DNA of 32,000 nucleotides, from contig CAYIXG010000005.1 of the NCBI GenBank assembly GCA_964367375.1, positions 1 through 32,000 of the forward strand, read 5' to 3'. Shown piece after piece: positions 1,986 to 31,521 of the stretch. Within the stretch, counting starts at the first letter, position 1; every line of letters starts with the position of its first letter. The stretch comes from Candidatus Woesearchaeota archaeon (GTDB lineage Archaea; Nanobdellota; Nanobdellia; SCGC-AAA011-G17; UBA489). The position numbers were made by a program, and so were the translations under genes. Under the pieces are notes generated by a model. The model saw nothing but the letters and a program-made list of their open reading frames with translations. It searched no databases and was not told where the DNA came from.

Positions 1986-2537
1986 ATGAGGAGCATCCTT
2001 TTTTCCCTCCTTATTCTCATCCTCCTTGGATGTGAACCTCGAGAACAAGAAGATTCTCTTGAAAATAATACTCCCTCTTCTCCATCCTCATCACGCAACA
2101 TTACACGACCTCCTCCCCGTGAAAACACCACAACACCCTCTCAACCCTCCCAGGAAACCAAACGATTAGAAGCAATCGGCTTTGGCATTTTCAACTATTC
2201 AGAATTGACACCCAGCACTTGTGACCCTTTTTTTGCATCCTATCAAGACCGCATCATTCAAAAAAGGGAAGACATTGAACGGCTTGAAGATCGGAGCAAA
2301 GACCATGCGTATCGCGTTGAACAGGCTGCGGAAGAACTTGCAGAAGCGCAGGCAAGCGGCAATAATAATGCTATCGATAGAAAAGAACGAAACCTTGAGA
2401 ATGAAGAAGACGAGCTTGAAATAATTAATGAAGAAATAGAAGACGAAGAAGATACTCTCAAAAAACATATCATCATCAAAGAAACTATTGAAAAAGAATG
2501 CGTCAAGCTCAAAGTGAAAGTTGGAAAAATTGACTGA
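1986..2537 (+). CDS. Putative secreted lipoprotein with acidic coiled-coil region
   Basis: The N-terminus MRSILFSLLILILLGC looks like a signal peptide with a lipobox-like LLGC. An S/P/T-rich linker follows, then a Glu/Asp/Lys-rich helical region (EDELEIINEEIEDEEDTLKK). No family recognised. Confidence 0.5.
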   Translation: MRSILFSLLILILLGCEPREQEDSLENNTPSSPSSSRNITRPPPRENTTTPSQPSQETKRLEAIGFGIFNYSELTPSTCDPFFASYQDRIIQKREDIERLEDRSKDHAYRVEQAAEELAEAQASGNNNAIDRKERNLENEEDELEIINEEIEDEEDTLKKHIIIKETIEKECVKLKVKVGKID

Positions 2538-3188: not shown

Positions 3189-3847
3189 TGGTCACTCAAA
3201 AAAATATCGTGAAAGTTCTTGACACCCTTCTGAAACAGAAACACCTCTTTAAACACACTGCGCTCACTGAAGTTTCCACACATTACAACACTCCTTTTCA
3301 TGTCCTTATCTCTTGCATACTGAGCCTCCGCACCAAAGACCAAGTCACCGGACCAGCATCTTTACGCCTCTTTCAACTCGCTGACACTCCTCAGAACATT
3401 TTGAAATTACATTTACATCACATCGAAAAAGCAATCTACCCTGTCGGCTTTTATAAAACAAAGGCGAAAACCATCAAACGAATCTGCACAACCATCCTCG
3501 AGAAACACAACGGAAAAGTTCCAGACACTCTTGAAGAACTTTTAACCCTAAAAGGTGTGGGAAGAAAGACTGCGAATATTGTTATGGTGTATGGACATGG
3601 AAAAGAAGGAATGCCTGTTGACACCCACTGCCACCGATGGCCCAATCGAATGGGTTGGATAAAAACAAAGACTCCAGAACAGACTGAAATGCAATTACGA
3701 GCCCTTATTCCTAAGAAATATTGGAAGATTTTCAATGATCTTATTGTACAATTTGGACAACACGTCTGCACACCCATCAGCCCCCACTGCAGCAGTTGCC
3801 CTATTCAGAAATATTGTCTTCAAATTGGAGTTATTAGAAATAGATAA
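3188..3847 (+). CDS. nth: Endonuclease III (DNA glycosylase/AP lyase)
   Basis: HhH motif LLTLKGVGRKTANIVM and PVDTHCHRWPNRMGW are present. The C-terminal Fe-S loop is C-x6-C-x2-C-x5-C (CTPISPHCSSCPIQKYC). Confidence 0.9.
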   Translation: MVTQKNIVKVLDTLLKQKHLFKHTALTEVSTHYNTPFHVLISCILSLRTKDQVTGPASLRLFQLADTPQNILKLHLHHIEKAIYPVGFYKTKAKTIKRICTTILEKHNGKVPDTLEELLTLKGVGRKTANIVMVYGHGKEGMPVDTHCHRWPNRMGWIKTKTPEQTEMQLRALIPKKYWKIFNDLIVQFGQHVCTPISPHCSSCPIQKYCLQIGVIRNR

Positions 3848-3866
3848 TGAACTTATTTTTCGTTTC

Positions 3867-4328
3867 TTACACCATAATAACGTTGTTTGTCTCGATACTT
3901 TCTTGCACTGCGCCTCCAATGAGTGGCGTGTAAAAGGTTGGACCATTCGGATTCACGATAAAATCAGCGTAAATAGCCGTGCTTAACATTGTGGATGATG
4001 GAGTTGTCAATCCAAATATAAAAACTCCCCCTGGTTGAAGAGTAGGAACTGCTTGATATTGTGGATAAAAACCAGCAATACCACCAACACTGGTGAAACC
4101 AGCAGCAGTTGTTGGAAGCGCTGGACCTTTCCCTCTATTAGTAATCGTGACTACAACAAATTGACCAGAACGAATCGCAGACACTACCAATTCAGGGAGC
4201 GAATTCTCGAACACTTTTCCTGTCGGCGCCTTTACATTTGGAGGAGACACGAACAACGAAAATGCGAGAATGCCCCCTATTATAAGTACTATCATTGTGA
4301 TCGAAGAATCCTTCCTCTTTTCAACCAT
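3867..4328 (-). CDS. Membrane-anchored/secreted protein with CARDB-like domain
   Basis: Start moved to the internal ATG at 4328 (MVEKRKDSS...). On the minus strand, tttatatat lies about 22 nt upstream of it. An N-terminal TM helix (ITMIVLIIGGILAFSLFV) is followed by PTGKVF. CARDB-like strings are PELVVSAI...VVVTITNRGKGPA and FIVNPNG...ESIETNN. Confidence 0.5.
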   Translation of the reverse strand: MVEKRKDSSITMIVLIIGGILAFSLFVSPPNVKAPTGKVFENSLPELVVSAIRSGQFVVVTITNRGKGPALPTTAAGFTSVGGIAGFYPQYQAVPTLQPGGVFIFGLTTPSSTMLSTAIYADFIVNPNGPTFYTPLIGGAVQESIETNNVIMV

Positions 4329-4442
4329 CTTTAATTTCTTGTATATTATATATAAAAAGTTTATGATACCACGCATCCTCACCTATTCACAACCCTTATA
4401 AAGAAGTTCCTCTTCCCGCATCCTATCAGAAGGAGGTGGCGT

Positions 4443-5233: not shown

Positions 5234-6031
5234 ATGCCCTCTTACTCTCTTGAAACTGTTCGCAAAATGAGCACCGACCGGCTCACTGCATTGAACTCTG
5301 ATTTAGTTCGATATGCAGTTGAAGGCCAAGATGCTGCTCTTTATGGACTTCTCGTTGAGCGATTAGGATTATCTATTAATCACCCCCTTCTTTACGAACG
5401 CTTTCAAACAGATTTTGGCAACCATCACTCACGAACGCCCCTTCCCCAATCCTCAGTTCTCCCTTTTACAGCAACCCATCACCACAACTTTGGCATTACC
5501 CAAGCAAAAAACCTTGAAACTTCTCTTACTGAACAAGGATTGCGATGGTTCTTTTATGGCATCAGAAATGCACCTGACATTCCTGCAGGACTTCTTGATG
5601 TGTTGCACCCAAAAGCGGAAATTATTGACCTTTATATTGGTATATGGAAAAACAAATTCAGACACAAAGATACGGAAGAACCACGCACTTTCCCTCCTGA
5701 AACTTTTGTTATAGAAGCTGCACGCATTATTACCCTTGGAAACTCGTTCCAACACGAATACTTGAATGGAAATAACGCCCTCTCTGGCTTTGATGCATCA
5801 TCACTACATCCTTTACCAGCACGCCTTGCAACAGTTCCAGACAAAGATCAAGATCAATTCATGACAGCACTTGGAAGAAAAACTCTTCTCCCCATGTGGA
5901 GAGAAAAAGGAGAATGGCACGGCCATGGATTCATGGTATCTCCACGCAAAAAAGGACAATTTAATGCACACGCGTACGCACTTGCAATTTATAGACACTT
6001 CAAAGAGAAAGAAGAAAAACTTCTTCACTAA
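5234..6031 (+). CDS. Hypothetical cytoplasmic protein
   Basis: Long ORF with uniform coding look. The ATG at 5234 is preferred to the TTG at 5213 because tttataaa (5203-5210) lies about 25-30 nt upstream of it. No motif recognised. Confidence 0.55.
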   Translation: MPSYSLETVRKMSTDRLTALNSDLVRYAVEGQDAALYGLLVERLGLSINHPLLYERFQTDFGNHHSRTPLPQSSVLPFTATHHHNFGITQAKNLETSLTEQGLRWFFYGIRNAPDIPAGLLDVLHPKAEIIDLYIGIWKNKFRHKDTEEPRTFPPETFVIEAARIITLGNSFQHEYLNGNNALSGFDASSLHPLPARLATVPDKDQDQFMTALGRKTLLPMWREKGEWHGHGFMVSPRKKGQFNAHAYALAIYRHFKEKEEKLLH

Positions 6032-7188
6032 TCCTCATTCTTTCCTGTAGACTCAGCAACACACTTGCACATTCCTCCAACATTATTACAATTTGGTTTC
6101 TCTGGAGGACAAGGCCCATTACAGAAACCTCCTAGTCCTGGAGGATTTCCCTCACATGATGGAGCAGGAGGAGCAACACACACACAATTTTGACAAGTAT
6201 TTGGCGCTGTGCACAACTTTCCTAAATTATTAATACATGTTCCCTGTGCATTTCTTGTTCCACACTGCGCTCCTGGAGAACCCGGCGCAGGACCAGTTGC
6301 TCCTGCAGGGCTAAGCGTCCAGCCACCATATCCTGTTGGCGTAGGCGCCTTCCCTGTCTGTGTGACTTGCGTAAGACCTTGTTCTGTCAACGGATTTCCT
6401 GGAGGAAGCGTATTCCCACAGTGGCTATTTGTAATCGTCTGAATAATTAATGTATACAATCGCATAAACTCTTTTAGAATTTGATTCGTTGCACCCTTCA
6501 TAAATGTTGCATATTGTAACCTTTCTAATATTTCATTAAATTGTGGTAGCCACTCATTGATAAACACCAGATTTAAACTTGGAGGCAAACGATATCCTGG
6601 ACCACCTGGAAGATTCCAATACGCACCCTGCCCTCCAAATCCTGGAAGACTCATAATCCAACTCGCCAATTGCGGCGTTAACACAAAAAAATTCTGCCCA
6701 TTAAAATTCATCAACGCAGCTGCAAAAGGATCAACCAGCCTCCCACCTATCAAGCTATGTAACGCATTTTTATACTGATCACTTAAACTATTTAATTCGT
6801 TATTAATTGCATTTATCTGATTTTGCCAGTATCCAACATCATATGCAAGCATCACCATATATGGCTCGAACACATACAACACTAATTGTAGTGTTGTTGT
6901 TCCTGTACACCCTGTTGAGAACACTCCTGGAAGAATGATTAATTGTCCACCAAATGTTGTTGCAAATAAATTAAGTACACCCAATTGATCCAGAATGCCG
7001 TTTAACTGAGGAAAATTTCCTTCTGTTGGAAAGAAAGGACCATTTGGAGGTGCTGTTAAACTGTTTCCTGAAGCACTCAGAGCTACTTGTTTTCCCGTAT
7101 ATGAACTATCTAAAAAAATGATTCCTATCGCAACAGCGACAAAAATGCCTATAATAAGAATACTTTTTGTCTCACTCTTTTTTTCCAT
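6028..7188 (-). CDS. Secreted/anchored protein: N-terminal TM helix plus YTGKQV motif, and a C-terminal 78-aa 12-Cys domain
   Basis: N-terminus is MEKKSETKSILIIGIFVAVAIGIIFLDSSYTGKQV. The C-terminus CGTRNAQGTC...CNGPCPPEKPNCNNVGGMCKCVAESTGKNED is paralogous to the C-terminus of 8338-9852. A minus-strand TATA (tttttatac) lies about 30 nt upstream. Confidence 0.75.
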   Translation of the reverse strand: MEKKSETKSILIIGIFVAVAIGIIFLDSSYTGKQVALSASGNSLTAPPNGPFFPTEGNFPQLNGILDQLGVLNLFATTFGGQLIILPGVFSTGCTGTTTLQLVLYVFEPYMVMLAYDVGYWQNQINAINNELNSLSDQYKNALHSLIGGRLVDPFAAALMNFNGQNFFVLTPQLASWIMSLPGFGGQGAYWNLPGGPGYRLPPSLNLVFINEWLPQFNEILERLQYATFMKGATNQILKEFMRLYTLIIQTITNSHCGNTLPPGNPLTEQGLTQVTQTGKAPTPTGYGGWTLSPAGATGPAPGSPGAQCGTRNAQGTCINNLGKLCTAPNTCQNCVCVAPPAPSCEGNPPGLGGFCNGPCPPEKPNCNNVGGMCKCVAESTGKNED

Positions 7189-7344
7189 TCTTTTTTAGAG
7201 AGTTTTGCTTGTATAAAAACATATCTCCTTTTATTTGGATACTTTCATATACTTCTCTTCTTCATTTTGTTCTTATCATGAGGTGTGACTGACGTGCTTT
7301 TTTTTACCTAAAAGATTTCTTACACGCACATTCTTTTTTTTTGA

Positions 7345-7500
7345 ATGATCTTTCTTCTTCTTTCTTTGCCGTTGAGTGTGGCACAGCCAGGTGTGCTTGT
7401 ACCTCTTGTACCACAAACATGCCAAACAATAGGAACCACATGCCAATGCAAAGGCACCACCACATCCACCAAAGAAGCCAGAAAACAAGAAAACAGATAA
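7345..7500 (+). CDS. 51-aa mini-ORF (not in ORF track): signal-peptide-like N-terminus joined to the C-terminal C-x6-C-x-C tail of the 504-aa protein. Either a small secreted peptide or a deletion remnant.
   Basis: Hand translation gives MIFLLLSLPLSVAQPGVLVPLVPQTCQTIGTTCQCKGTTTSTKEARKQENR*. The N-terminal half matches the signal region of 8338-9852 (LLLSSVPFGVAQPGTLAPPV), with 19 of 23 nt identical around ccgtt..gtgtggc.ca.ccagg. The C-terminal half contains a 55-nt exact copy of 9765-9819. Confidence 0.4.
   Translation: MIFLLLSLPLSVAQPGVLVPLVPQTCQTIGTTCQCKGTTTSTKEARKQENR
7410..7464 (+). repeat. 55-nt exact direct repeat, copy 1 (partner 9765-9819)
   Basis: accacaaacatgccaaacaataggaaccacatgccaatgcaaaggcaccaccaca is identical at both sites. 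The next roughly 35 nt are similar but diverged. Confidence 0.95.
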
Positions 7501-7548
7501 CTATAAATACTTCTTTTCTGTTTCAATATAACTAAAAGGTGAAAAAAT

Positions 7549-8322
7549 TTGACTGTACAATCTCGTGTTTTACACTCACCACATCTTCGGCTTTTTTTCT
7601 TTGCGCTTTTCATAATTATAGGCGCTTTTTTAATCACCACTTTTAAGCCAGAACTTACTGGAAAGCAAGTCCTGAGCACAACACCTACTCTTGAAAGCAC
7701 GACATCTACAGTTACAGTTCCTGCAATAAGTTATGCAACATCAGCTACAGGAGATATCCTTCACCTTGAATTACAAACTGGAGAAGATTATGTTGCGTGC
7801 TCAGTCACGCCGCTCGGAGACCAGTCAAGCGTACCCTCAGTAACGCCACGATTACCTGATGGACGTGCATTACCCACATATTCTGAGGGCGGACCAAATT
7901 TCCAACACACTACAATTACCTTAATTCGCATCCTTGGAGAGTGCGAAAACGCGCTCGTTGCTCCAGAAGATCTCCTCAAAATTATTGATAACCCTTCTCG
8001 CCTTTCCCCAGTATCCTATGACCTCTTATTATCGCTTGAGGAAGTTGTGTGCCCACAACCAGCACCTACTGCTTCATATCAAAATATACCTGAAGTAATA
8101 GATGCGGCGTGGGAAGCATACGAAACCATGGATGGAGGAACAGCTATTTACAATATTTATTCCACTACATTATATGGCGCACTTGCCGCTCCAGGAAGCA
8201 CCTTGTTTGCTCAAGCAGCACAAAGCAAGAGCTGTATTGTTCCTGTTTATGTTGGATGGAAGTGTACTGCGACACAAAAAGTTCAACCCAACCAAGATTG
8301 TACTGTTCTCGCTGTCGACTAA
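7549..8322 (+). CDS. Secreted/anchored hypothetical protein (TM helix plus LTGKQV motif)
   Basis: TTG start is preceded by aaGGTGaa at 8-nt spacing. N-terminus is LFFFALFIIIGAFLITTFKPELTGKQV. The ectodomain is Ser/Thr-rich with 6 Cys. The next gene starts 15 nt downstream. Confidence 0.65.
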   Translation: MTVQSRVLHSPHLRLFFFALFIIIGAFLITTFKPELTGKQVLSTTPTLESTTSTVTVPAISYATSATGDILHLELQTGEDYVACSVTPLGDQSSVPSVTPRLPDGRALPTYSEGGPNFQHTTITLIRILGECENALVAPEDLLKIIDNPSRLSPVSYDLLLSLEEVVCPQPAPTASYQNIPEVIDAAWEAYETMDGGTAIYNIYSTTLYGALAAPGSTLFAQAAQSKSCIVPVYVGWKCTATQKVQPNQDCTVLAVD

Positions 8323-8337
8323 AAAAATAATAATCAC

Positions 8338-9852
8338 ATGCAAAACATGGTTACCCTTCACAAAATTAACGGCACCTTGGTTTTTTTACTTGTTTTGTTA
8401 CTATCGAGCGTTCCGTTTGGTGTGGCGCAACCAGGAACATTAGCACCTCCTGTTACTCCTTGGGGAGTTGCAGCAAATGGACAGCTGATACTTCAGCCTC
8501 CACTTCCCAACACTCAAACCTTGCCAGGCACTCGTGTTCCCCAATATGGCAGCGGACAACAACCCACACAACCTTCTTGGATGTCCTGGTGGGTGTGGTA
8601 TAATTTTATTAATAGCTTAACTCCTGTGCAAGCTCCTCTACCTCCTTCATCTAAACCCCAACCTACACCATCTTACACCACACCCATCGGAGGCAGTTTA
8701 CCAACACAACCCGGAACCGTTATTGGTATCAACATCCCCGGAACCTCAACTCCTGATTGGGAAGCAATAAATGATGCAATATTATCCTTTTTAGAAGTTC
8801 TTCCTTTTGATGCTTCTGTGTCTGTAGGAACAAATTCGCGCATTGATCAAACAACTGGTTCACAACTTTGCCAACAGCCTCCACCAAACGCAAATTTCAT
8901 CTACATGGGCCTTTACGTTCCTGCCACATCTTGTGCGAGTCTTTCTGCAGCATTAGCATCAGGAAAACAACCAGTACTCATTCCAGGTCTTTCATTACAA
9001 ACTGTTGGAGATTCGCATACTCCTTCTTGTCCTAATCCTACATGCAGTGGAAAGAATCCTTCAACAAACGCAGCTGCGCAAGGATCTTGTGTTCCCAAAA
9101 TTATTAGCAAAAACCCAGATGGATATTATCCTACACGCGGAACAATCGATGATATAGAAAGAGTTGTTGCTCGCATTCGAGCAACTCCCCGGTATTCTTC
9201 TACAATATCCTCTCAACACCTTAGTATATTACGACAGATTCTTATTGCAGCACTTCAAATACCTGGAACCCACCCGCTCTATAATTCCATTCAAGGCATC
9301 GCGAGCTATTTGAGTGCACTCCTCATTCCTGGAAGTGGAATGATGGGATGCACAATGATGTTTAAACTACACTTTGGCTGTTTTTGTTACTCTTCTCCTG
9401 GTGTTCGAATGATTCCTCTTGAAACTAAACAAGGCAATACTCCTCCATTTAACCGATTGTTCGGAAGAACTGGTGGCTCAATTGGTTCTGGACCTTCAGG
9501 AACAGGAGGAATCACAAGTAGTCAACCAAATCCTTTTGGTGGTCGTATTTTAGCGGCTATTTTGTCTGCGTTTGGGTTCACTGGTGGCGCACCTCAACAA
9601 CCTGGAGGGTTTGAATGCAGTGGTGATATTTCTGGGAAAACGTGTGTACCTGACAACACTAAGTGTGTTGCTCCAAAAATCTGCAGTGGCACATGCACGT
9701 GCATTACTCCTGCCACCCCGACGTGTGCTGGCAGCTATCCCGCATGCAACGGACCCTGCCCTGCACCACAAACATGCCAAACAATAGGAACCACATGCCA
9801 ATGCAAAGGCACCACCACACCCACTAAAGAGCCTGAAGAAAACAAAGACTGA
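8338..9852 (+). CDS. Secreted protein: Sec-type signal peptide, P/Q/T-rich region, and a C-terminal 78-aa 12-Cys domain
   Basis: The signal is GTLVFLLVLLLSSVPFGVA|QPG. The C-terminal CSGDISGKTC...CNGPCPAPQTCQTIGTTCQCKGTTTPTKEPEENKD has the same Cys spacing and the same 78-aa length as 6031-6264 on the minus strand. Confidence 0.8.
   Translation: MQNMVTLHKINGTLVFLLVLLLSSVPFGVAQPGTLAPPVTPWGVAANGQLILQPPLPNTQTLPGTRVPQYGSGQQPTQPSWMSWWVWYNFINSLTPVQAPLPPSSKPQPTPSYTTPIGGSLPTQPGTVIGINIPGTSTPDWEAINDAILSFLEVLPFDASVSVGTNSRIDQTTGSQLCQQPPPNANFIYMGLYVPATSCASLSAALASGKQPVLIPGLSLQTVGDSHTPSCPNPTCSGKNPSTNAAAQGSCVPKIISKNPDGYYPTRGTIDDIERVVARIRATPRYSSTISSQHLSILRQILIAALQIPGTHPLYNSIQGIASYLSALLIPGSGMMGCTMMFKLHFGCFCYSSPGVRMIPLETKQGNTPPFNRLFGRTGGSIGSGPSGTGGITSSQPNPFGGRILAAILSAFGFTGGAPQQPGGFECSGDISGKTCVPDNTKCVAPKICSGTCTCITPATPTCAGSYPACNGPCPAPQTCQTIGTTCQCKGTTTPTKEPEENKD
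9765..9819 (+). repeat. 55-nt exact direct repeat, copy 2 (partner 7410-7464)
   Basis: See copy 1. This copy lies inside the 3' end of the 504-aa gene. Confidence 0.95.
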
Positions 9853-9878
9853 TAATACTCACCTTTTTCCTTTGTTGT

Positions 9879-10532
9879 TCATGCAGAAGCAAACTGAAGG
9901 CTAAAATGATACGCAACTCCACAGAAAGGAGCATACAAACTTGCGTCAGGATCTTTTCTTTCTCCCACTTTACACCCCTCAGGACCACACATTGATGCCT
10001 GGCTCACTTGTATCAATCTTGTTGTTGGAATCATTGACGGCACTCCTAGTCCTAATTCAATTCTCCTTCCCCGAATGTTAATATCACCCAACCTTTTCCA
10101 TTCCTCTAATTGTCTGCTATATCTTCCCATCATCCGCAACAACTCTCCCCTGTTCATATCTGCAAGACTTACTTCTCCAAAAACCCCTGTTAGCCATCCT
10201 TGTATTCTTCCTCTTTCTCTTTCACTTTCCTCTCTTGAGCATCCCATTCCTTTTCTCACGCTCCAGAACCTTCCTTCATCCAACTTTCCTACTGTCGTTA
10301 ACACTTCTGCTAAATCTCCCCCAGAAACACTTACCTCTTCATTGCTCTTACTTGGAAAAAAAATCCCAATAGGCAACCTGTCCTGTGAACTTACTGGCTG
10401 CTCATAAAAATGATGAAACACTTTGTCTGACAAATCATCTGCCAACACTACCTGAGGCTCCTGTGGATTTTCCGGATTTCTTGCTACCCACCCTTGCACG
10501 TACATATTCCTCGTTGTTATCACAGAAACCAT
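9879..10532 (-). CDS. Hypothetical cytoplasmic protein
   Basis: 217-aa ORF with no TM or signal and a charged central region (SREESERERGRIQGW). It is convergent with 8338-9852. No family recognised. Confidence 0.5.
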   Translation of the reverse strand: MVSVITTRNMYVQGWVARNPENPQEPQVVLADDLSDKVFHHFYEQPVSSQDRLPIGIFFPSKSNEEVSVSGGDLAEVLTTVGKLDEGRFWSVRKGMGCSREESERERGRIQGWLTGVFGEVSLADMNRGELLRMMGRYSRQLEEWKRLGDINIRGRRIELGLGVPSMIPTTRLIQVSQASMCGPEGCKVGERKDPDASLYAPFCGVAYHFSLQFASA

Positions 10533-10734
10533 ATGTTACTATTATTAAGTAATGCTTTTTAAAGGTTTCTGTATCTCTTTTCTAACCCATACCCTTTACT
10601 CATTCACGTTTTCCTTTTCATCCATTAATACTCTCCAGATAGATCTCGTGTTCAAAGAATATTCATCAGTTATACAAAAATAAAAACTTTATGAAATGTT
10701 CGCCTCTTTTGATTCCTCATTTTTTTCCCACAAG

Positions 10735-10743
10735 TTATATAAA
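10735..10743 (+). promoter_or_regulatory. TATA-box-like element upstream of 10769 gene
   Basis: ttatataaa is centred about 30 nt upstream of the ATG at 10769. This argues against the longer ORF-track start at 10691. Confidence 0.45.
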
Positions 10744-10768
10744 TTACTGGAAACCCTTTTGTTTGCTC

Positions 10769-11461
10769 ATGGAATCAAAAATTATTATCCTCATATTCCT
10801 TATTCTTTTTCTTGCTGTTTTTGTTCCTCAATACACTGGTCGTCAAGTACTTCAAACTGCGTTTTGTGGCGATGGTGTTATCCAGCCTCCAGAAACCTGC
10901 GATCCGGGAAGCCCATCAACTTTGGTTTGTCCTCCATACTCTTATTGCCATCCAACCCAATGCCAATGTGTTTCCCAGTCTATCCCTTACTGGTGGCGCC
11001 CCACTTACTCAGGACCTAACGAAGAACCAGCACCTCCTTATCCTCCTAGTTTACCAGGAATACCTCTTGGAAAAGCTGGCTCCTTAGTCGGAAACCTCCC
11101 TGTAGTAGACACTTGCACAAGCATTACTCTCCCATCAGGCATCACGCCAGGACATGCAGGAACCTTATGCAAGACTGGGATTTGCAGCATCGGCCCCTAT
11201 GAAGGGGAATGCATGTTCAACGGAGAAGGCTGCGAATGCAGGTTTAGTCTTTCTATTTTATCTGGAATTGGTGGCTCATCACCTACTTTATGTGAACACG
11301 CTACTTTAGATCCTGACAATCCAACACCTGCAATCACCTGCGCCTACCACTATTGTCCCCAAGGACTGGGATGTGAGGTTACTAGTGACGGCAAACGTTG
11401 CGAATGCAGACCACTTCCTGTCATTTCTTTACCTGAAGAAGATGCTTCCTCTGAGTATTAA
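10769..11461 (+). CDS. Secreted Cys-rich protein (TM helix plus YTGRQV motif, a CGDG...ETCD repeat, and C-x-C-terminated modules)
   Basis: N-terminus is MESKIIILIFLILFLAVFVPQYTGRQVLQTAFCGDGVIQPPETCDPG. Modules are CPPYSYCHPTQCQC, CKTGICSIGPYEGECMFNGEGCEC and CAYHYCPQGLGCEVTSDGKRCEC. The tail is acidic. Confidence 0.7.
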   Translation: MESKIIILIFLILFLAVFVPQYTGRQVLQTAFCGDGVIQPPETCDPGSPSTLVCPPYSYCHPTQCQCVSQSIPYWWRPTYSGPNEEPAPPYPPSLPGIPLGKAGSLVGNLPVVDTCTSITLPSGITPGHAGTLCKTGICSIGPYEGECMFNGEGCECRFSLSILSGIGGSSPTLCEHATLDPDNPTPAITCAYHYCPQGLGCEVTSDGKRCECRPLPVISLPEEDASSEY

Positions 11462-11485: not shown

Positions 11486-11507
11486 TCTTCCTCGGAAAGG
11501 AATTCTT

Positions 11508-11620
11508 AGACGGCCATAGCGGCTTGGTTCCACTGGCTCTCATCTCGAACGCCAACGTTAAACAAGCCCGCGTTCTGGGTTGTACTGCACTTTGCTGCGG
11601 GAACCCCAGATCGTCGTCGC
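11508..11620 (+). rRNA. rrf: 5S ribosomal RNA (stand-alone, ends +/- a few nt)
   Basis: Sequence reads GACGGCCAUAGCGG...CCAC...CAUCUCGAAC...GUUAAAC...GUACUG...GGGAAC...GUCGUC. The 5' GACGGC pairs with the 3' GUCGUC (helix I). An oligo-T (cttttcc) follows. Confidence 0.9.
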
Positions 11621-11632
11621 CTTTTCCTGACC

Positions 11633-12424
11633 TTACTTAAATATTCCTTCCACTTCAAAACCCTGTCTTTTCAGCTCGTCCCTTATTATTCTTGGATCTT
11701 TTCTTTCATATTGAAAACGCTGCGTCATTGTTGGGACAAATGGTTTTATTTCAATAGGACAATGTTTCTTCACTGCTGCGAGGTTTGTGCGCACAACCAA
11801 ACTGTAATAATCTAAGGGGGAATAGAAAAATCGCGTTTTGTTTTCATCAGTCCCTACAACCTGATGCAACTTCGGAATTTCCTGATAGGAATACAATAAA
11901 TCATCAAGCTCACTCTGTGCAAATGACGCATACGTTATCGTTTCATTAAAAAAGAAGGCTGCCTCAAGCACATCCTCTGCTTCCCGACAACTAAATCCTT
12001 GCTCATCAATTACGATTCCCCTATCGTCAAACTCTCGCCCTAAATGATAATACCATTGCGATGTCAACATCATCTTCCGGATGTCAATAAATAACAACAA
12101 TGCTTCTATATGTGGAGACTTTGATCTTTTATCGAGAGTATCCTCAAACTTCTTCAACTCATCAAGCATCGGCTTAATGTTCTCTTTTTTCACCGTTGTC
12201 TTGTTTAGCTTCTCGTCATGAAACGAGGCATTAAAATTTATATCAATATCCTGCAGTTCTTTAAACCCCTCTTCAAAAGTGAACTCTTTCTTGTCATACT
12301 TGTTTAGAACAATAGACAATCCTATTAAGAGAATAAGAATACACAAACCTATTATTATCCACTTGTACTTTTCCCTTGAAAGAAAGCTTTTTTTCTCTTT
12401 CATAACCTTTTTTTCACACCGCAC
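11633..12424 (-). CDS. Hypothetical membrane-anchored protein (single N-terminal TM)
   Basis: N-terminal helix is KWIIIGLCILILLIGLSIVL, followed by a soluble Lys/Glu/Asp-rich domain. The true start may be the internal Met (MKEKKSF). No family recognised. Confidence 0.55.
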   Translation of the reverse strand: MRCEKKVMKEKKSFLSREKYKWIIIGLCILILLIGLSIVLNKYDKKEFTFEEGFKELQDIDINFNASFHDEKLNKTTVKKENIKPMLDELKKFEDTLDKRSKSPHIEALLLFIDIRKMMLTSQWYYHLGREFDDRGIVIDEQGFSCREAEDVLEAAFFFNETITYASFAQSELDDLLYSYQEIPKLHQVVGTDENKTRFFYSPLDYYSLVVRTNLAAVKKHCPIEIKPFVPTMTQRFQYERKDPRIIRDELKRQGFEVEGIFK

Positions 12425-16818: not shown

Positions 16819-18258
16819 TCATTTTCTATTACAACCAATCAATCTTTTATAACCAAGATGTAGCAAGTGATGTTCCCTCCTTACTCTTTTTACTACAGAA
16901 TTACTAACACCTAATTTATTTGTAATCTCAGAAACTTTTATAATTGGCTTTTCTTTATACAGCTGGATTATCTGTTGAATTTTTTCTTCTGGAATCTTAC
17001 AGTTCGCTTTATGACCTCTCCTCACGCCGTATCTTTGGCACGTTCTCCGTACAATATTTTCATCGATATCATACTTTTGAGCAATTTTTTTCTGGGATAG
17101 GTAAGGATTATTTGCTGCAAGGGTTGCTATTTCTTCACGTAACCATTCTTGAGTTTTTATTTTTCTTTTCCCAAGATTATTGTCCTTTAAAACGCGTTGA
17201 ACTTTCAGTCTTCCTATAAAAACTCTTTCTGCTAGTTCTCGCGTGTTCGTGATCCCCTTCTTGTAAAGTTCTAGAATCTTATCAACCTTCTCTTGAGATG
17301 TCTTGTTCCATACATTTACTCCTCTCTTTTTGAAATAGTCTGTTTCATTCTTTATATTAAGATACCGTTGCATCATTTTCAAGAATTTTGCATATTTTTG
17401 TCTATGCAATGTCATCAGTCTTTGGTTGAGAAGATGGACGAGGTTTTCTTTTCTTGAAATAATGATGTCTTTATAATTTTTGTAAACTTTTGAAATAATT
17501 TTTAATCTTATTAGGCATCTTTGAATAATCAACCTTTCTTCTTCTTTTACTGCTGATATATGAACTCTAAACTTTTTATATTTATTATCCGATTCTACAC
17601 ATGCTTCACCAGCAATCATTCCTTGTAGAAACCCTCTAATTAACTCTTCTTCAAAAGTAGGCATTTCATTAACAATGTCTTTAATGAACTTCTTAAAAGC
17701 TTGACTCAATAAATTATTTTTAACAGTTATCGTTAATGCTCCTTCATTTTTGGGAATAATATTGTTTGTTTTATTTCTGTAAAGTAACGTTTTTGGATGT
17801 TTTTTATCAAAATCTAAATCTAATTGCATACACCACCATTCTGCTAATGAATCACGCAATTCTATTCTGAGTTCTTCATTTTCTGGTTCTCTTAAATTAA
17901 TCGTAATATTCCAACTCCATGATTTTCTTGAAATATCAAACTCATTCTCAAACCATTTTATCACCATTTTCAGTAATCTTGGATCACTATTACAGAAAAC
18001 GATAGCACCATTGTTTGTTTTACTCATTTCCGCTTGTAATAAACCTATAACCTGGAACGACTCTTTGGTTTTAGAAACGAATCTTGGTATTATCTCTGTA
18101 TATTCTTGTACACGTACTATACCATTTTTATCCGGATCATTTACCTTATAACAAAGGGTTATATGATCTTGTTCGATTCTTGCAGCTAAATCATGTTCTT
18201 TTTCTTCACCTGAAATTATTTTCTTTGGTAAGTATTCTACTAAATCTATTTTGTCCAT
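16819..18258 (-). CDS. Free-standing LAGLIDADG-type homing-endonuclease-like protein with three C-terminal HTH repeats
   Basis: There are two LAGLIDADG-like motifs with typical followers: FQVIGLLQAEMSK..GAIVFCNSDPRLLKMVIKWF and IRGFLQGMIAGEACVES...ISAVKEEERLIIQRCLIRLKI. Three helix-turn-helix-like repeats follow (KILELYKKGITNTRELAERV..., LSQKKIAQKYDIDENIVRR..., KVSEITNKLGVSNSVVKRV...). The gene is much more AT-rich than its flanks. Confidence 0.6.
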   Translation of the reverse strand: MDKIDLVEYLPKKIISGEEKEHDLAARIEQDHITLCYKVNDPDKNGIVRVQEYTEIIPRFVSKTKESFQVIGLLQAEMSKTNNGAIVFCNSDPRLLKMVIKWFENEFDISRKSWSWNITINLREPENEELRIELRDSLAEWWCMQLDLDFDKKHPKTLLYRNKTNNIIPKNEGALTITVKNNLLSQAFKKFIKDIVNEMPTFEEELIRGFLQGMIAGEACVESDNKYKKFRVHISAVKEEERLIIQRCLIRLKIISKVYKNYKDIIISRKENLVHLLNQRLMTLHRQKYAKFLKMMQRYLNIKNETDYFKKRGVNVWNKTSQEKVDKILELYKKGITNTRELAERVFIGRLKVQRVLKDNNLGKRKIKTQEWLREEIATLAANNPYLSQKKIAQKYDIDENIVRRTCQRYGVRRGHKANCKIPEEKIQQIIQLYKEKPIIKVSEITNKLGVSNSVVKRVRREHHLLHLGYKRLIGCNRK

Positions 18259-19242: not shown

Positions 19243-19502
19243 CTTATAGCCCTGTACGAAATATTTCCATTTTCACCATTCTTTTCAACTAAACCAATTT
19301 GTTGTGCATATTGCAGCCCTCTCAATAGTTGTATACTCGTTGCGTCATCTGGTCCATAGCCTCTCATTTGCGTCAACACATCTCTTATCTGCATTTCTCC
19401 TCCATTCCTATCCAACACTTCTAACGCAAGATTCGCCAAATCATCTATTGTTCTCTGATCTGTTGGTTCATTCATCCTCTGCAACATGTGATGATGCCCC
19501 AT
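19239..19502 (-). CDS. Small hypothetical protein (possible winged-helix) inserted between rpl18e and rpl13
   Basis: 87-aa ORF that exactly fills the gap. Its start overlaps the L18e stop (TAATG) and its stop overlaps the L13 start by 4 nt. The helical N-terminus plus LLRGLQYAQQIGLVEKNGENGNISYRAI resembles a wHTH recognition helix and wing. Confidence 0.55.
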   Translation of the reverse strand: MGHHHMLQRMNEPTDQRTIDDLANLALEVLDRNGGEMQIRDVLTQMRGYGPDDATSIQLLRGLQYAQQIGLVEKNGENGNISYRAIR

Positions 19503-19852
19503 TATCCCAGTATCCTCACATTCTTTCCCTTTGGATTTTCCTTCATGAGATCGCGAATAGACATTGTTACCACCTTTTTCTTCGCTGACTGAGAAAAACT
19601 CATTGCAGCAACCTTCACCTTTTTCTTCACTTCTCCACTTCCCAACACTTTTCCAGGCACAACAATAGTCTCGCCATCATTCGCATATCTTTCAATCTTG
19701 TATGTGTTCACTTCACGCCTCTCGCGCGTTGGCTTTTCCAAATCCTCTGCAACCCTTTTCCAGATTCCTACCTTATTTTCAGCGCTTACCTTCTTTAAGT
19801 CTTTGATTAATTCCTGTATTCCCTGATTTGTCGGACCTGTTGGTTTTCCCAT
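19502..19852 (-). CDS. rpl18e: 50S ribosomal protein L18e (eL18)
   Basis: Motifs are GPTNQGIQELIKDLKK...IWKRVAEDLEKPTRERREVN...VVPGKVLGSGEV...KENPKGKNVRILG. Confidence 0.92.
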   Translation of the reverse strand: MGKPTGPTNQGIQELIKDLKKVSAENKVGIWKRVAEDLEKPTRERREVNTYKIERYANDGETIVVPGKVLGSGEVKKKVKVAAMSFSQSAKKKVVTMSIRDLMKENPKGKNVRILG

Positions 19853-26397: not shown

Positions 26398-29300
26398 TTA
26401 CGGCTCAAATAATCTCGTTAACCAACCCACAAAGGACTGCCAGACTGATAGACTTCCAGAGCCAGAACCTGCAGGAACTGTACCTCCCTCCTTCCCAGAT
26501 ACGCCTACAGTTAGATCAGGCGCACTTACTGGCTCTCCTGTTGCCGCATCAGGATCTGTTGGAGGAGTTACCTTCCCTTTTATCATACATTGACAATCAG
26601 AACCTCCTAATTGTTCACACGTTTCCCCTGCAACTGGACACCCACCACCACACACCGGAGCCTTTCCTGCTGGAGTTGTTCCTGGCGGATGCAATAAATC
26701 TCGACACGGTCCTGACCCTGTTCCTGTGGATACACATCCACTACCCGCATCCCCACAATTCACCCCACCACCTGCGGGGCCACCTGCACTTGCTGGACAA
26801 CTTGGCCACACAATCGGACCCCACTGACAATTTGACTCACATGTCACTGTTCCACATAAAATAGTTCCATCAGGACAAATTGCACATCCCCCTGGTGCAG
26901 TTATACCTGGAGGATCGCAGCCCTCACCTGGATCAAGCACCCCATTCCCACACAAATTGAGAGGCATGCAATCACAATGATCTCCATGCGTTTGACACAA
27001 TGGCGCTTCCGGGGGACAACTACCTCCACAGACTAATACATTTCCACATGTTGGACACGTTGCAATAGGAGCACACCCTCCACCCCCTCCTGGACCTCCA
27101 TGACCTATTGGAGGAGATGATGGCAATGGAGGAGGCATTGGACCAGTACAACTTGTTGTCTCAAGTGTACATTCTCCGATAGCTCCCGGTGCCTTACACC
27201 CTAATGTCCCTCCAGTAAATCCAAAGTCATTACACGTCATCCCATTGAAATCAGGACCATCACACTGCTCTGTTATCAAATCATAATTCACCTGCTCACC
27301 ACTCGCAAGCGTCACCCAATTGTTCACCACATTATCCCCGCATGTTGGCCACATACACCCTGAAGGATATGTCATTCCATACACATCACACAATGGCGTT
27401 CCCGGAGGGCAAGAGCATGTTGCACCAGACGTTCCTGGCGCACGATTACAACTATCTGGCACATACGCAAGACAAATATTCCCCCGGTCACAATCCTCAT
27501 ACGGTGGATTTACTAGATTATTCCCGCATAATACTTGCGGCGCAGGTATACAACTATCAGTGTTCAACGTGCAATTTGGATTGCAACTCAATGTCCCTCC
27601 ACCCAAATAACCTACTGTTGCACACGTTTCTCCCTGCAAATCAGGACCATCACACTCTTCAAACTCTCCGTTATTGTTCGGCCATTGCGCTACCCCATCA
27701 CCACAGAAAGATCCTGGACACGTCTCTCCACAATATCGTGTTCCATCAACAAACACCTTTGTATAATGCGTTTGCACCATACTATCAGACAATGCAGTGT
27801 CATATACCACCACACCCTCCACAAATCCTGAAAATTCCGTCCACGGACTTAATGTAATAGGAACTGCCCCTACTGGAGATCCAATTCCAAAAATCCCGTC
27901 AGACGCAATGCTTCCTGTTGCATCATCAATCACAATAGGTGTTGGCGTGCCATCAACATACAAGCGCATAATCTTACTTCCTGCTGAAGTGTGCAAGCGC
28001 ACAAACACTATATGATGCCACTGCCCATCTCCAATGTCTAAGGGCCACTCAATACTTATAGACACCAAATTTACATCCGTGAGCAAGGCACCAATCCTAT
28101 TAATAGGATTTCCCGTGTACCCCACAACATATACTTCTCTTGGCCAATTAAATCCGTACTTTCCCACAATCAACGGATTTTGATTTGTGGTTGTTGACTT
28201 TACTAAGAATTCCACACTAAAGTCGTCATCAGCACCAAAATTCAACGGGCTTGCCGCAAGAATATTCTTTCCCAGAAATGCAGGCGTTCCTGTAAACTCA
28301 ATTGACCCGCACACCGCACCCGGCTGTCCGAAGTTGATCACTCCAGATCCTACTTTGTCTAAATCATTACTCCCTTTGCTATCCACTGCCGTTACTGGAC
28401 CAGCATCATCCAAATTCCACTGCGCCACCCTGTTATTCACACACTCATTCTTCGGCACACATGTCCCTGCTTCGCATTCCATATTTGGATACCCAGTACA
28501 CTCATAATCAAACGAACAAAAGGGTGTTATACACAAACAATTCAGGCACACTAATCCTCCAGCACATCCTGGAGTTCCTGGATCACCACACTGCTCACCA
28601 GGATTGAACACACCATTTCCACACGCTTCTGTTTGACACAATTCATTACATCCGTCTCCTGGAATTGTATTCCCATCATCACATTGTTCTGGAACACCAT
28701 CATAATTCACCAAGCTTCCCCCTGATGTCGATGCAATATTATTCACTATTCCATCCCCGCATGTCGGCCAACGACAGCCTTGAAACGTGCTAATACTTTC
28801 CCCTGTTCCTGCCAATGGACCTATGGAAATGGGAGGCACACCACTTGTGCACGCTACGTCATCCTCATCACACGCACATCCCGAGCCACCAATTATCCCT
28901 GGGGGATTATTCAAGTCGCCTAAATCACATTCCTCTCCTGATTGAATAGTATCATCACCACACCCTGTTTTTTCGCACGCACCAGACACACACGTGTGTC
29001 CTGGCGGACAATTTGCATTTGTTGTACACAAACATTCACATGCATTCACACTTTCCGCTGCACCACACACTACAATTGGAGGAAATTGCGGCGGCGCTTT
29101 TGCTAATGGACATATTCCTCCATCAGCACCATCACACTGCTCAAAGCCTTCTCGCAAATTATTCCCACATAAAATAACAATAATCACATTGCCTGCGTTA
29201 AACAACCTAACTTCGTGCAGACCTTCACTTGCCGGCCAATCACCCTGCATCTGCATCGGCATCCTCCAATGCATGACACCACCTTTCCACCCAATCTGCA

Positions 29301-29577
29301 AGTCACTTCCAACCACATCCGCCCACTCGATACCTGAAGGATTATTAATCACAATCGTTTTTGACGATCCCTCACCCAATGAGATCAACTGATTCACACC
29401 GGTTACTGTTGTCTCTGCATTCTGATCAAGACTTGACTCTCGCGAACCTTCCAAGCGCGACGTTGACAAGAAAAATAAAGGAATAATTAGGATGAACATC
29501 ACACCCATAAGAACAATTGTCTCCAGCGAGGACTGCGACTTCGCAACTCCCTCTTTTACTTTTTTTCTCATCACCAC
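26398..29577 (-). CDS. Giant (1,059 aa) Cys-rich surface protein: class III (type IV pilin-like) signal peptide, CGDG...ExCD cysteine repeats, LamG/ConA-like lectin domain, C-x-C-terminated modules
   Basis: The N-terminus KKVKEGVAKS|QSSLETIVLMGVMFILIIPLFFL has the same Q+1/E+5 pattern as the adjacent pilin. Repeats are of the type CGDGIVNN...EQCDDGNTIPGDGCNELCQTEACGNGVFNPGEQCGD (Myxococcus-type cysteine-rich repeat). The LamG_3-like core reads DDFSVEFLVK...GQWHHIVFVRL...MRLYVDGT...FSGFVEGVVVYDTALS. C-terminal modules are CGGSCPPEAPLCQTHGDHCDC and CGGGCPVAGETCEQLGGSDCQC. Confidence 0.85.
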   Translation of the reverse strand: MVMRKKVKEGVAKSQSSLETIVLMGVMFILIIPLFFLSTSRLEGSRESSLDQNAETTVTGVNQLISLGEGSSKTIVINNPSGIEWADVVGSDLQIGWKGGVMHWRMPMQMQGDWPASEGLHEVRLFNAGNVIIVILCGNNLREGFEQCDGADGGICPLAKAPPQFPPIVVCGAAESVNACECLCTTNANCPPGHTCVSGACEKTGCGDDTIQSGEECDLGDLNNPPGIIGGSGCACDEDDVACTSGVPPISIGPLAGTGESISTFQGCRWPTCGDGIVNNIASTSGGSLVNYDGVPEQCDDGNTIPGDGCNELCQTEACGNGVFNPGEQCGDPGTPGCAGGLVCLNCLCITPFCSFDYECTGYPNMECEAGTCVPKNECVNNRVAQWNLDDAGPVTAVDSKGSNDLDKVGSGVINFGQPGAVCGSIEFTGTPAFLGKNILAASPLNFGADDDFSVEFLVKSTTTNQNPLIVGKYGFNWPREVYVVGYTGNPINRIGALLTDVNLVSISIEWPLDIGDGQWHHIVFVRLHTSAGSKIMRLYVDGTPTPIVIDDATGSIASDGIFGIGSPVGAVPITLSPWTEFSGFVEGVVVYDTALSDSMVQTHYTKVFVDGTRYCGETCPGSFCGDGVAQWPNNNGEFEECDGPDLQGETCATVGYLGGGTLSCNPNCTLNTDSCIPAPQVLCGNNLVNPPYEDCDRGNICLAYVPDSCNRAPGTSGATCSCPPGTPLCDVYGMTYPSGCMWPTCGDNVVNNWVTLASGEQVNYDLITEQCDGPDFNGMTCNDFGFTGGTLGCKAPGAIGECTLETTSCTGPMPPPLPSSPPIGHGGPGGGGGCAPIATCPTCGNVLVCGGSCPPEAPLCQTHGDHCDCMPLNLCGNGVLDPGEGCDPPGITAPGGCAICPDGTILCGTVTCESNCQWGPIVWPSCPASAGGPAGGGVNCGDAGSGCVSTGTGSGPCRDLLHPPGTTPAGKAPVCGGGCPVAGETCEQLGGSDCQCMIKGKVTPPTDPDAATGEPVSAPDLTVGVSGKEGGTVPAGSGSGSLSVWQSFVGWLTRLFEP

Positions 29578-31507: not shown

Positions 31508-31521
31508 CACCTCTTTCTCCT

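Follow-up and report, generated by a model that had tools for sequence, protein, structure and literature searches.

The window, by which is meant the whole 32-kb stretch of DNA analysed here, belongs to a Woesearchaeota-like DPANN archaeon from the 0.1-um fraction of Hainich groundwater, well H51, which we take to draw on the oxic lower aquifer. Archaeal housekeeping genes such as PTH2, Rpr2, RpoD and ribosomal proteins lie nearby on the host contig and the best relatives of the PTH2 are found in Candidatus Woesearchaeota MAGs (52-55% identity), with no close relative in the searched collections, where the top PTH2 identity was 55%. A cluster of 5.4 kb within the window probably comprises, as judged from the sequence, four orphan exported proteins (A, C, D and E) and one decayed gene copy (B). 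The coordinates of A-E and of ORF X in an earlier note on this DNA all agree with the ORF list, and the intergenic gaps of 48 nt (B-C) and 15 nt (C-D) were verified. The features referred to in the text are as follows.

3867..4382, minus strand: Cys-free protein (153/171 aa) outside the cluster, whose N-terminal hydrophobic segment precedes APTGKVF, a relaxed version of the motif
6028..7188, minus strand: gene A (386 aa), N-terminal signal/anchor, orphan centre, C-terminal 12-Cys domain
6031..6264, minus strand: residues 309-386 of A, divergent first 6-Cys unit, Pro-rich linker, canonical 6-Cys module at 345-376
7084..7188, minus strand: residues 1-35 of A, n-region MEKKSETKS, 17-aa hydrophobic stretch, DSSYTGKQV
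7345..7500, plus strand: mini-ORF B (51 aa), signal-peptide end joined to the last three Cys of the domain
7410..7464, plus strand: 55-nt exact repeat, copy 1, within B
7549..8322, plus strand: gene C (257 aa, TTG start), signal/anchor carrying KPELTGKQV, orphan body containing 6 Cys, no Cys domain at the C-terminus
8338..9852, plus strand: gene D (504 aa), classical signal peptide ...VPFGVA/QPG (cleavage at the slash), P/T/Q-rich orphan centre, C-terminal 12-Cys domain
9616..9849, plus strand: residues 427-504 of D, 78-aa, 12-Cys domain, canonical module at 463-489
9765..9819, plus strand: 55-nt exact repeat, copy 2, within the 3' end of D, encoding PQTCQTIGTTCQCKGTTT
9879..10532, minus strand: ORF X (217 aa), embedded gene without signal or TM segment, no detectable relatives
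10769..11461, plus strand: gene E (230 aa), signal carrying PQYTGRQV, followed by 18 Cys in three 6-Cys units, each with CxC as its end
26398..29577, minus strand: 1057-aa protein outside the cluster, pilin-like (class III) signal KSQSSLE, LamG, DUF4215/myxo_disulf repeats

For A-E, Pfam and NCBIfam gave nothing at or near the threshold, and there was no match at all among PHROGs, PADLOC and the PDB sequences. A and D are orphans with no homologues outside their own genome, each matching only itself among 5.8 billion clustered proteins; the orphan status of C and E is less secure, resting on the family and PDB searches and, for C, on its being a singleton in the 90% clustering. The central regions are mutually unrelated, as had been claimed earlier (pairwise Smith-Waterman z-scores all below 2), and X, with neither signal nor TM segment, was confirmed as an unrelated cytoplasmic ORF interleaved in the cluster and outside the family. 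TATA-like boxes were located upstream of A (TATAAAAA in plus-strand letters, 7212-7219, 24-31 nt before the ATG), of C (TATAAATA, 7502-7509, followed by the SD element GGTGA at 7538-7542) and of E (TTATATAAAT, 10735-10744, which fits the ATG at 10769 and thus the 230-aa start).

Both A and D end, as the earlier note had described, in a 12-Cys domain which measures 78 aa from its first Cys to the C-terminus, and the two copies are similar in sequence (BLASTP 52 bits, E=1e-11, 38% identity across 96 aa). The domain consists of two small 6-Cys units in tandem, each predicted to close with a CxC beta-hairpin, and its second half is an undescribed 6-Cys module of about 30 aa with the signature C-x(5-18)-C-x3-C-P-x(4-6)-C-x(5-8)-C-x-C. 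In the AF2 model of A the second unit reaches a pLDDT of 73-87, and there is a beta-hairpin at each CxC end. When 1.84 billion representatives were searched exhaustively with HMMER, the module turned up only in A, in D, in the 1057-aa protein and in three proteins with tandem modules, the last three being unrelated metagenomic proteins whose modules align cleanly. An HMM built from these three external proteins only and run on 414 ORF segments of the window matched D (E=4.9e-6), the 1057-aa protein (2e-4), A (2e-4; residues 345-376, aligned at 347-378 of the 388-aa ORF segment) and B, and no other segment. Two modules are present in the 1057-aa protein, at 26968-27075 and 26587-26706 (A/D profile E=6e-14). 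Parts of the Cys pattern had also been assigned to B and E; the assignment stands for B, which has the last three Cys and the HMM match, and falls for E, where only the terminal 'G..CxC' looks alike. Kinship of the three 6-Cys units of E with the A/D module was considered and rejected (hhalign probability 4%; no match of the module HMM to E).

Among known repeats, TIGR02232 (myxo_disulf_rpt) and DUF4215 are likewise short Cys-rich repeats of exported proteins, both occur in the 1057-aa protein, and E opens with a similar-looking CGDG...ETCD stretch; however, A, D and E match neither model even at E<=1, and the C-x3-C-P ... C-x-C signature of the A/D module is without the acidic CDDGN core. EGF, furin-like and TNFR repeats resemble the module in being tandem, extracellular six-Cys units of about 30-40 aa with a CxC beta-hairpin, and proteins with repeats of these types form about half of a Foldseek list in which every entry is non-significant. 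Foldseek, which the earlier note had proposed, found no structure that matched significantly (lowest E 2.7 in PDB and 0.5 in BFVD), nor is there a sequence match of such repeats to the A/D domain; moreover, CxC is the last Cys pair in the A/D module, whereas in EGF it is formed by Cys 4-5. The 6-Cys module has probably spread across exported proteins via duplication and domain shuffling.

The 55-nt exact repeat exists, although its copies lie inside B and the 3' end of D and not between two members of the cluster as had been thought. It forms the exact core of a 94-nt match of 85% identity between B (7407-7500) and D (9762-9855), and the exactness of this 55-nt core points to recent gene conversion. 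A second resemblance, between B (7369-7391) and the signal-peptide end of D (8413-8435), covers 19 of 23 nt and is only suggestive (z about 2.4). B is uncalled as a gene in every public assembly, and no TATA or SD element stands out upstream of it. It is probably the internally deleted remnant of a D-like gene, left over from a duplication. The claim of five extracytoplasmic products can accordingly be kept for A, C, D and E, which are very probably exported, and not for B, which is not a credible product.

At the N-terminal end, the presence of TG[KR]QV after a hydrophobic segment in three proteins (A, C and E) was confirmed. Translated in all six frames, the window contains the motif exactly three times, each time in one of these proteins, against 0.055 expected (maximum 1) in composition-preserving shuffles. 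Its codons differ synonymously between A, C and E, so that it is conserved at the protein level and is no recent DNA copy, which shows that selection acts on the protein. Looser forms follow the N-terminal hydrophobic segment of the Cys-free protein at 3867-4382 and those of secreted proteins in two Woesearchaeota MAGs (SYMGNVIL, KSVGNAIL, RISGKAT). These occurrences outside the cluster and in distant Woesearchaeota point to a general export or cleavage signal, and the motif looks like such a signal and not like a family-specific module, judging from about seven N-termini. It would form the end of a Sec-type signal composed of an n-region, a hydrophobic core of 15-18 aa and a c-region of 5-6 residues, often with Pro, and most likely represents the preferred processing site or mature N-terminus of the lineage, the alternative being a signal anchor that stays uncleaved and has the motif at its membrane-proximal end. 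The Sec signals of archaeal signal peptidase I are similar in their n-region with Lys/Arg, hydrophobic core of 12-18 aa, short c-region often with Pro and small final residue, which is Ala in D and Gly in the other three. Not typical of them are the Tyr at -3 in A and E and a conservation that extends three residues beyond the putative site. Tyr at -3 is atypical for a signal peptidase I site under the -3/-1 rule, and cleavage after TG is therefore uncertain.

The same features could belong to a dedicated N-terminal signal for sorting or processing, whose reader would be a particular membrane protease or transpeptidase. In three proteins with no other kinship, the five residues are exactly conserved on both sides of wherever cleavage might plausibly fall, their codons vary synonymously, the Tyr suits signal peptidase I poorly and the hydrophobic cores of A and C (17-18 aa) are of anchor-capable length. 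However, no candidate enzyme is tied to the cluster, an SPP-type protease at 25374-26216 belonging to a ubiquitous family and sitting 14 kb off; D pairs the C-terminal domain of A with an ordinary signal peptide; and the looser TGKV, GN.IL and SGKA behind unrelated signals, here and in distant relatives, suit a general signal better. We regard a dedicated signal as unlikely. It would be an N-terminal counterpart of the C-terminal sorting signals, with A, C and E anchored or released under regulation.

That the products of A, C, D and E are extracytoplasmic is very probable in view of their signal-like N-termini, Cys-rich ends and depletion of N-glycosylation sequons, and the exported set also shows even Cys counts in the terminal domains and P/T/G-rich linkers. 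This depletion is specific to the exported proteins: the cluster proteins have one sequon against 9.35 expected (P=0.0002) and the 1057-aa protein one against 7.4 (P=0.004), as compared to 18 against 15.9 in a cytoplasmic control set of the same window. Taken together, we favour, with some confidence, a reading of the cluster as lineage-specific, disulfide-rich surface or secreted proteins, in which the shared N- and C-terminal ends have two separate causes and B is a remnant. Once exported, the modules may fold as disulfide-locked knobs at the end of the P/T/G-rich linkers and would equip unrelated surface or secreted proteins with the same stable element for docking or contact, whose target is probably the cell envelope or another (host) cell. 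A surface role is plausible since the 6-Cys module is common to the pilin-like LamG protein of 1057 aa, which adjoins another pilin-like gene (29768-30289). The sequence features, the kinship of the A and D domains, the module family, the orphan status of A and D and the depletion of sequons are shown directly, whereas we infer export, cleavage, disulfide formation and the role in adhesion or docking, the last from context, as the central regions are without a known fold (mean pLDDT 46.7 for AF2 on A). Large surface adhesins of DPANN archaea, carrying LamG or other binding domains, are thought to mediate host attachment. The cluster is comparable in its DPANN host, its exported orphans and the module in common with a pilin-like LamG protein; in contrast, A, C, D and E are short, at 230-504 aa, and lack any recognisable binding domain, and host contact is presumed. 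The shared export motif and the Cys module are real, yet fairly ordinary for such organisms.

Quite unlikely, in our estimate, is that the adjacency of these genes is incidental, the products being unrelated secreted effectors or structural proteins of the envelope that share no function, and the module a result only of promiscuous domain shuffling. The central regions are indeed unrelated, C has only the signal motif in common with the others, the Cys units of E are of a different kind and a cytoplasmic ORF is interleaved; Cys-rich secreted proteins near PTH2 in distant Woesearchaeota also suggest that such genes are simply abundant. Against this stand four exported orphans and a remnant within 5.4 kb, the B/D duplication and the common A/D domain, which indicate at least a common local origin and turnover. 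Incidental adjacency overlaps for the most part with the explanation favoured above, differing only on the shared role.

The earlier note had favoured a diversifying surface family, with constant end modules around variable middles. On this reading B would act as a partial donor resembling a silent cassette. The 55-nt exact run within the 85%-identical match, as a sign of recent B/D gene conversion or recombination, the direct repeats 2355 nt apart, which could drive deletion or duplication, and the clustering of genes that are all orphans speak for it. However, the middles are unrelated sequences and not diverged variants, and no two proteins have both ends in common: both ends are shared in A, only the C-terminal domain in D and only the N-terminal motif in C and E. 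Nor are the shared features confined to the cluster, the looser TGK following the signal at 3867-4382 and the Cys module occurring twice at 26398-29577. The locus also resembles the silent-cassette variation of Neisseria pilE/pilS and Borrelia vlsE in having a promoter-poor partial copy, B, with an exact stretch in common with a nearby full-length gene; it differs in that there is one partial copy and no array, that B spans the conserved C-terminal end and not the variable region, and that the locus does not vary between the two assemblies which cover it. The cluster is identical in the second, independent assembly, L002, which shows only three differences (19491-19520), at its contig end. A scan of window ORFs revealed no mobility gene, reverse transcriptase (diversity-generating retroelement), recombinase, invertase or cassette array among those covered. 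A diversifying family is thus distinctly improbable.

Binding of metal (Fe-S/Zn) by the Cys modules in place of disulfides, making the proteins extracellular or membrane-associated redox or metal-handling factors, is very improbable: the Cys density is high and the only PDB sequence matches of the module profile are to the P-x-C-D-G-S-H of CDGSH iron-sulfur proteins, but these are non-significant (E 0.56-0.69), cover 12-14 residues and have a spacing to the preceding CxC unlike the CDGSH motif, the module is without a His ligand, its even Cys counts and beta-hairpin units look like disulfide-rich extracellular repeats, several EGF, furin-like and TNFR-type repeats appear in the non-significant Foldseek list, and the aquifer is presumably oxic.

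The GC and GC3 of the cluster are in line with the remaining genome. The codon-usage scores of the annotated frames of the cluster genes are all under the housekeeping mean, probably owing to their odd amino-acid composition, and the score does not separate the frames for D and E.

As judged from sequence, the genes at positions 6028-11461 form an island, specific to the lineage of one DPANN archaeon, that encodes Sec-exported and probably disulfide-rich proteins; the N-terminus shared among its members is a putative export-signal feature and the shared C-terminus a predicted tandem of small Cys units, among them an undescribed module. The coordinates of the ORFs, listed below, agree with their placement in the earlier note.

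ORF A, 6028-7188, minus strand, putatively exported protein of 386 aa
ORF B, 7345-7500, plus strand, mini-ORF of 51 aa
ORF C, 7549-8322, plus strand, putatively exported protein of 257 aa
ORF D, 8338-9852, plus strand, putatively exported protein of 504 aa
ORF X, 9879-10532, minus strand, embedded unrelated ORF of 217 aa
ORF E, 10691/10769-11461, plus strand, putatively exported protein of 256/230 aa with two possible starts

TATA-like boxes and SD sequences, called by consensus resemblance only, were observed for three of these ORFs: in A a box 24-31 nt upstream of the ATG, in C TATAAATA at 7502-7509 together with the SD GGTGA 6 nt before the TTG start, and in E TTATATAAAT at 10735-10744, 25-34 nt 5' of the ATG at 10769, a position which supports the 230-aa form of E. 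B has neither a TATA-like box nor an SD upstream.

The C-terminal domains of A and D are homologous, with 38% identity over a 96-residue alignment (52 bits, E=1e-11), and in each protein the stretch from the first Cys to the C-terminus spans 78 residues with 12 Cys, which bears out the claim that two of the proteins end in a shared domain of equal length. An exhaustive search of 1.84 billion representative proteins with a HMMER profile of this domain returned six proteins, namely A, D, a 1057-aa protein encoded outside the cluster (26398-29577, minus strand) and three short metagenomic proteins (P0004, P0005 and P0006), all on contigs of 1-1.5 kb. The last three are otherwise unrelated proteins carrying tandem arrays of two to six copies of a ~30-aa unit with the signature C-x(5-18)-C-x3-C-P-x(4-6)-C-x(5-8)-C-x-C. 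In these arrays a Pro-rich linker leads from the CxC of each unit into the next, and a junction of this kind also connects the halves of the A/D domain; the 12-Cys domain thus consists of one unit of divergent sequence followed by a canonical one. When an HMM derived solely from the three external proteins was run against 414 ORF segments of the window, it matched D (4.9e-6), A (2e-4), the 1057-aa protein (2e-4) and the B fragment (0.013) and no other segment; the first half-units of A and D were missed by the module HMM. The six proteins constitute a new 6-Cys module family, with no match for the module in Pfam, NCBIfam or PDB sequences and no description of it, or of the N-terminal motif TG(K/R)QV, in literature searches.

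No relative was obtained in a scan of genome contigs with the A+D domain, a word-seeded search of 5.8 billion proteins with the A/D domain alignment yielded no protein besides the query, scans of viral contigs with C, E and the A/D domain gave no match, and the module was not found in ~140 kb of loci from distant relatives and other organisms. In the search of 1.84 billion representatives only tandem arrays are detectable and a single 30-aa unit falls below significance in so large a library, and the distribution of the module is therefore probably broader than six proteins. The Arg/Ala-rich N-terminus of one of the three metagenomic proteins suggests a high-GC bacterium as its source, and the module thus appears to cross the boundary between bacteria and archaea.

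The AF2 model of the domain (13-row alignment) is moderately confident, with a mean pLDDT of 66.9 and values of 73-87 in the second unit, and predicts a beta-hairpin at both CxC ends. Foldseek searches of PDB and BFVD with this model gave no significant match (best PDB hit E=2.7, TM 0.25). About half of the hits in the non-significant PDB list are to repeats of the EGF, furin-like and TNFR types or to small disulfide-rich toxins; the A/D module itself has no significant sequence or fold match to EGF-like, furin-like or TNFR repeats, the PDB sequence searches being empty. The acidic repeat DUF4215/TIGR02232 does not match A, B, C, D or E at E<=1, whereas the 1057-aa protein scores 29.7 bits with TIGR02232 (cut-off 20.8) and 23.3 bits with DUF4215, below the cut-off of 27. 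The CDGSH iron-sulfur signature, C-X-C-X2-(S/T)-X3-P-X-C-D-G-(S/A/T)-H, provides three Cys and one His as ligands. The module contains the P-x-C-[DN]-G portion alone (E=0.56-0.69) and no His, and the gap to the preceding CxC is ~13-17 residues as against 8 in CDGSH; with non-significant matches, a missing His and a different spacing, a CDGSH identity was rejected.

The Cys pattern of this domain had also been attributed in part to E and B. The three 6-Cys units of E, each ending in CxC, show no detectable relation to the A/D module (BLASTP not significant, hhalign probability 4%, no match to the module HMM). B does carry part of the Cys end of D, to the 3' end of which it is 85% identical over 94 nt with a 55-nt exact core (7410-7464 = 9765-9819), but it is probably a gene remnant rather than a gene, and no public assembly calls it. 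Towards its 5' end B is similar to the end of the D signal peptide (LSVAQPG against FGVAQPG, 19/23 nt), a similarity that at z ~2.4 is only suggestive. Owing to this similarity to both ends of D, B looks like a D-like duplicate from which ~1.3 kb has been lost internally. The flanks of the core are ~15-25% diverged, so that 55 identical bases in a row are unexpected and point to recent gene conversion between B and D.

The motif TG[KR]QV occurs exactly three times in the six frames of the 32 kb, against 0.055 occurrences expected from shuffling; the three copies are in A, C and E, each directly behind the hydrophobic segment at the N-terminus. Its codons vary between the three genes (ACG/ACT, GGA/GGT, AAA/AAG/CGT, GTA/GTC), and such synonymous differences indicate that the motif is maintained by protein-level selection rather than as copied DNA. 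A similar design is found in a Cys-free protein encoded outside the cluster (3867-4382, minus strand), with MVEKRKDSS, a hydrophobic core and then ...APTGKVF, and three secreted proteins in two Woesearchaeota MAG loci have SYMGNVIL, KSVGNAIL or RISGKAT at the equivalent site. D has the A-type C-terminal domain but an ordinary signal peptide (...VPFGVA|QPG). In view of the variants outside the cluster and the ordinary signal of D, TG(K/R)QV is read as belonging to a general export signal of the lineage, in which it could represent either the region of cleavage or the beginning of the mature protein. A, C, D and E each have n-, h- and c-regions, with Gly or Ala at -1. Cleaved Sec signal peptides are expected to have small residues at -1 and -3; position -3 of the putative site is Leu in C, Gly in D and Tyr in A and E, and the Tyr makes cleavage after the Gly of the motif uncertain. 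Archaeal class III (type IV pilin-like) signals carry a [KR]-[GA] cleavage motif ahead of the hydrophobic stretch, in many cases with Q..(S/A)..E after it, and this motif is absent in A, C, D and E.

Export of A, C, D and E is further supported by the strong depletion of N-x-S/T sequons (one observed against 9.35 expected, P=0.0002), as selection on sequons is sensible only for proteins that meet the extramembrane glycosylation machinery. Sequons are likewise depleted in the 1057-aa protein (one against 7.4, P=0.004), enriched in a neighbouring membrane protein at 11633-12424 (4 against 0.7) and neutral in a set of 22 cytoplasmic proteins from the window (18 against 15.9). Sequon avoidance may serve as a sequence-only marker for one class of exported proteins.

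The window is archaeal, with a housekeeping gene set that includes PTH2, RNase P Rpr2, RpoD, RpoN and the ribosomal proteins S9, L13, S11, S4 and S13; a DRG-type GTPase, Ogg and EndoIII glycosylases and a presenilin-type signal-peptide peptidase are also encoded. The same DNA is present in a 112,548-bp ENA contig (Hain_H51_01um_R2), a 19.5-kb contig of replicate R3 and a Logan assembly, and the H51 0.1-um contigs identify the source as groundwater of Hainich well H51, 0.1-um fraction; metatranscriptomes are available for these wells (PMC12960796). The nearest PTH2 sequences among 185,579 species genomes belong to Candidatus Woesearchaeota MAGs (52-55% identity), none in the JGI metagenomes being closer, and PTH2-anchored genome and metagenome scans gave distant relatives only (<=55% identity) with different downstream genes. 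Within the collections searched, this DPANN archaeon has no close sequenced relative. GC and GC3 of the cluster agree with the genome, and 9 kb of further source-contig sequence outside the window contains no additional members of the cluster type.

The earlier note regarded the cluster as a diversifying surface or host-interaction family with constant ends and variable middles. The central regions are, as it held, mutually unrelated, all pairwise local alignments being within shuffle expectation (z<2); P[DN]G..PT.G, a candidate for a motif common to the central parts of A, C and D, was rejected with alignment scores not exceeding those of shuffles. The 55-nt exact repeat is real, but it is the sole support for diversification. 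Diversification systems are characterised by several partial donor copies, or a reverse transcriptase and a template repeat, in addition to variability of the target. The cluster contains one partial copy (B), the scan of window ORFs revealed neither a reverse transcriptase nor a recombinase or transposase, and no pair of proteins has both the N- and the C-terminal features in common. The R3 contig shows zero differences across the cluster, its only three mismatches lying at its own end, and the Logan contig, 100% identical, stops short of the cluster and overlaps the window at 25497-32000 only; the cluster is thus invariant between the R2 and R3 assemblies, the two that cover it. Judged by the scanned ORFs and these two assemblies, the cluster does not have the make-up of a cassette-based or DGR-type diversification system, and a lineage-specific island of exported proteins is preferred.

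A and D are orphans, and C and E probably are as well. A word-seeded search of 5.8 billion clusters with A and D returned only themselves, C, E and X were singletons or self-variants in a 90% cluster look-up, and a metagenome scan with X gave no relative. None of A-E and X had a Pfam or NCBIfam match at or near threshold, A, C, D, E and X had none in PHROGs or PADLOC, and A, C, D and E none among PDB sequences. The AF2 model of full-length A (mean pLDDT 46.7) was too poor for a fold search.

As the module is also present in a pilin-like LamG protein, a role in cell-surface docking or contact is inferred as the most likely function of the shared C-terminus. DPANN archaea are thought to need physical contact with a host cell, and their contact proteins are mostly orphans. 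Taken together, the cluster is much like the orphan Cys-rich surface proteins that genomes of this kind commonly encode, and what is new in it is the module and the motif. It is conceivable, though improbable, that TG(K/R)QV, or more loosely G-[KRN]-x-[VI] directly behind the N-terminal hydrophobic segment, marks an undescribed step in the processing or sorting of surface proteins in Woesearchaeota-like DPANN archaea and that the 12-Cys domain is a new disulfide-knot docking fold, together forming a lineage-specific host-contact toolkit; if so, the domain would dock otherwise unrelated proteins to one shared partner, for instance the pilin-like LamG adhesin or some component of the host envelope. 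Current understanding is not overturned by these observations. Their value lies in annotation, where a ~30-aa 6-Cys module absent from Pfam and NCBIfam ties small secreted proteins to a pilin-like LamG adhesin and the post-signal motif could define the export or processing signal of the lineage and improve secretome prediction, and in a start for surface proteomics of groundwater DPANN archaea.

The 1057-aa protein combines a pilin-like class III signal (KSQSSLE), LamG, DUF4215/myxo_disulf repeats and two copies of the A/D 6-Cys module. Its gene is divergent from that of a 173-aa pilin-like protein at 29768-30289 on the plus strand (MMKRGQAAMEFL..., RGQAAMEFL), and the two may form a pilus-associated adhesin pair. 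A 183-aa protein at 1986-2537 (plus strand), with a lipobox-like MRSILFSLLILILLGC at its start and then a long Pro/Ser/Thr-rich stretch, may be an archaeal lipoprotein.

The cluster is flanked by PTH2 on one side and by a lone 5S rRNA gene and Rpr2 on the other; the 5S gene (11506-11622, plus strand, Rfam 71.7 bits), 44 nt 3' of E, is the sole rRNA gene of the window. Cys-rich secreted proteins (22 and 17 Cys), from which the A/D module is absent, are encoded within two genes of PTH2 in loci of distant Woesearchaeota relatives, as follows.

Locus L004, 367-1515, Cys-rich secreted protein
Locus L005, 7322-8473, Cys-rich secreted protein
Locus L007, ~3573-4247, minus strand, Cys-rich secreted protein

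Such relatives also keep an S30AE-like protein paired with PTH2. An archaeal/eukaryotic-type PTH2 with 46% identity to that of the window was also observed in a gammaproteobacterium-binned contig (JAUSLJ010000045.1, Agitococcus sp. MAG; locus L006), which could reflect a binning error or horizontal transfer. A 479-aa ORF at 16819-18258 (minus strand) with LAGLIDADG and several HTH domains lies in a low-GC stretch (31-32% against ~42%) between a deoxynucleoside-kinase-like gene and the S9/L13 ribosomal genes, and may be a free-standing mobile gene of the homing-endonuclease type. GC skew is negative (C>G on the plus strand) in all 1-kb bins of the window regardless of gene orientation, reaching -0.45.
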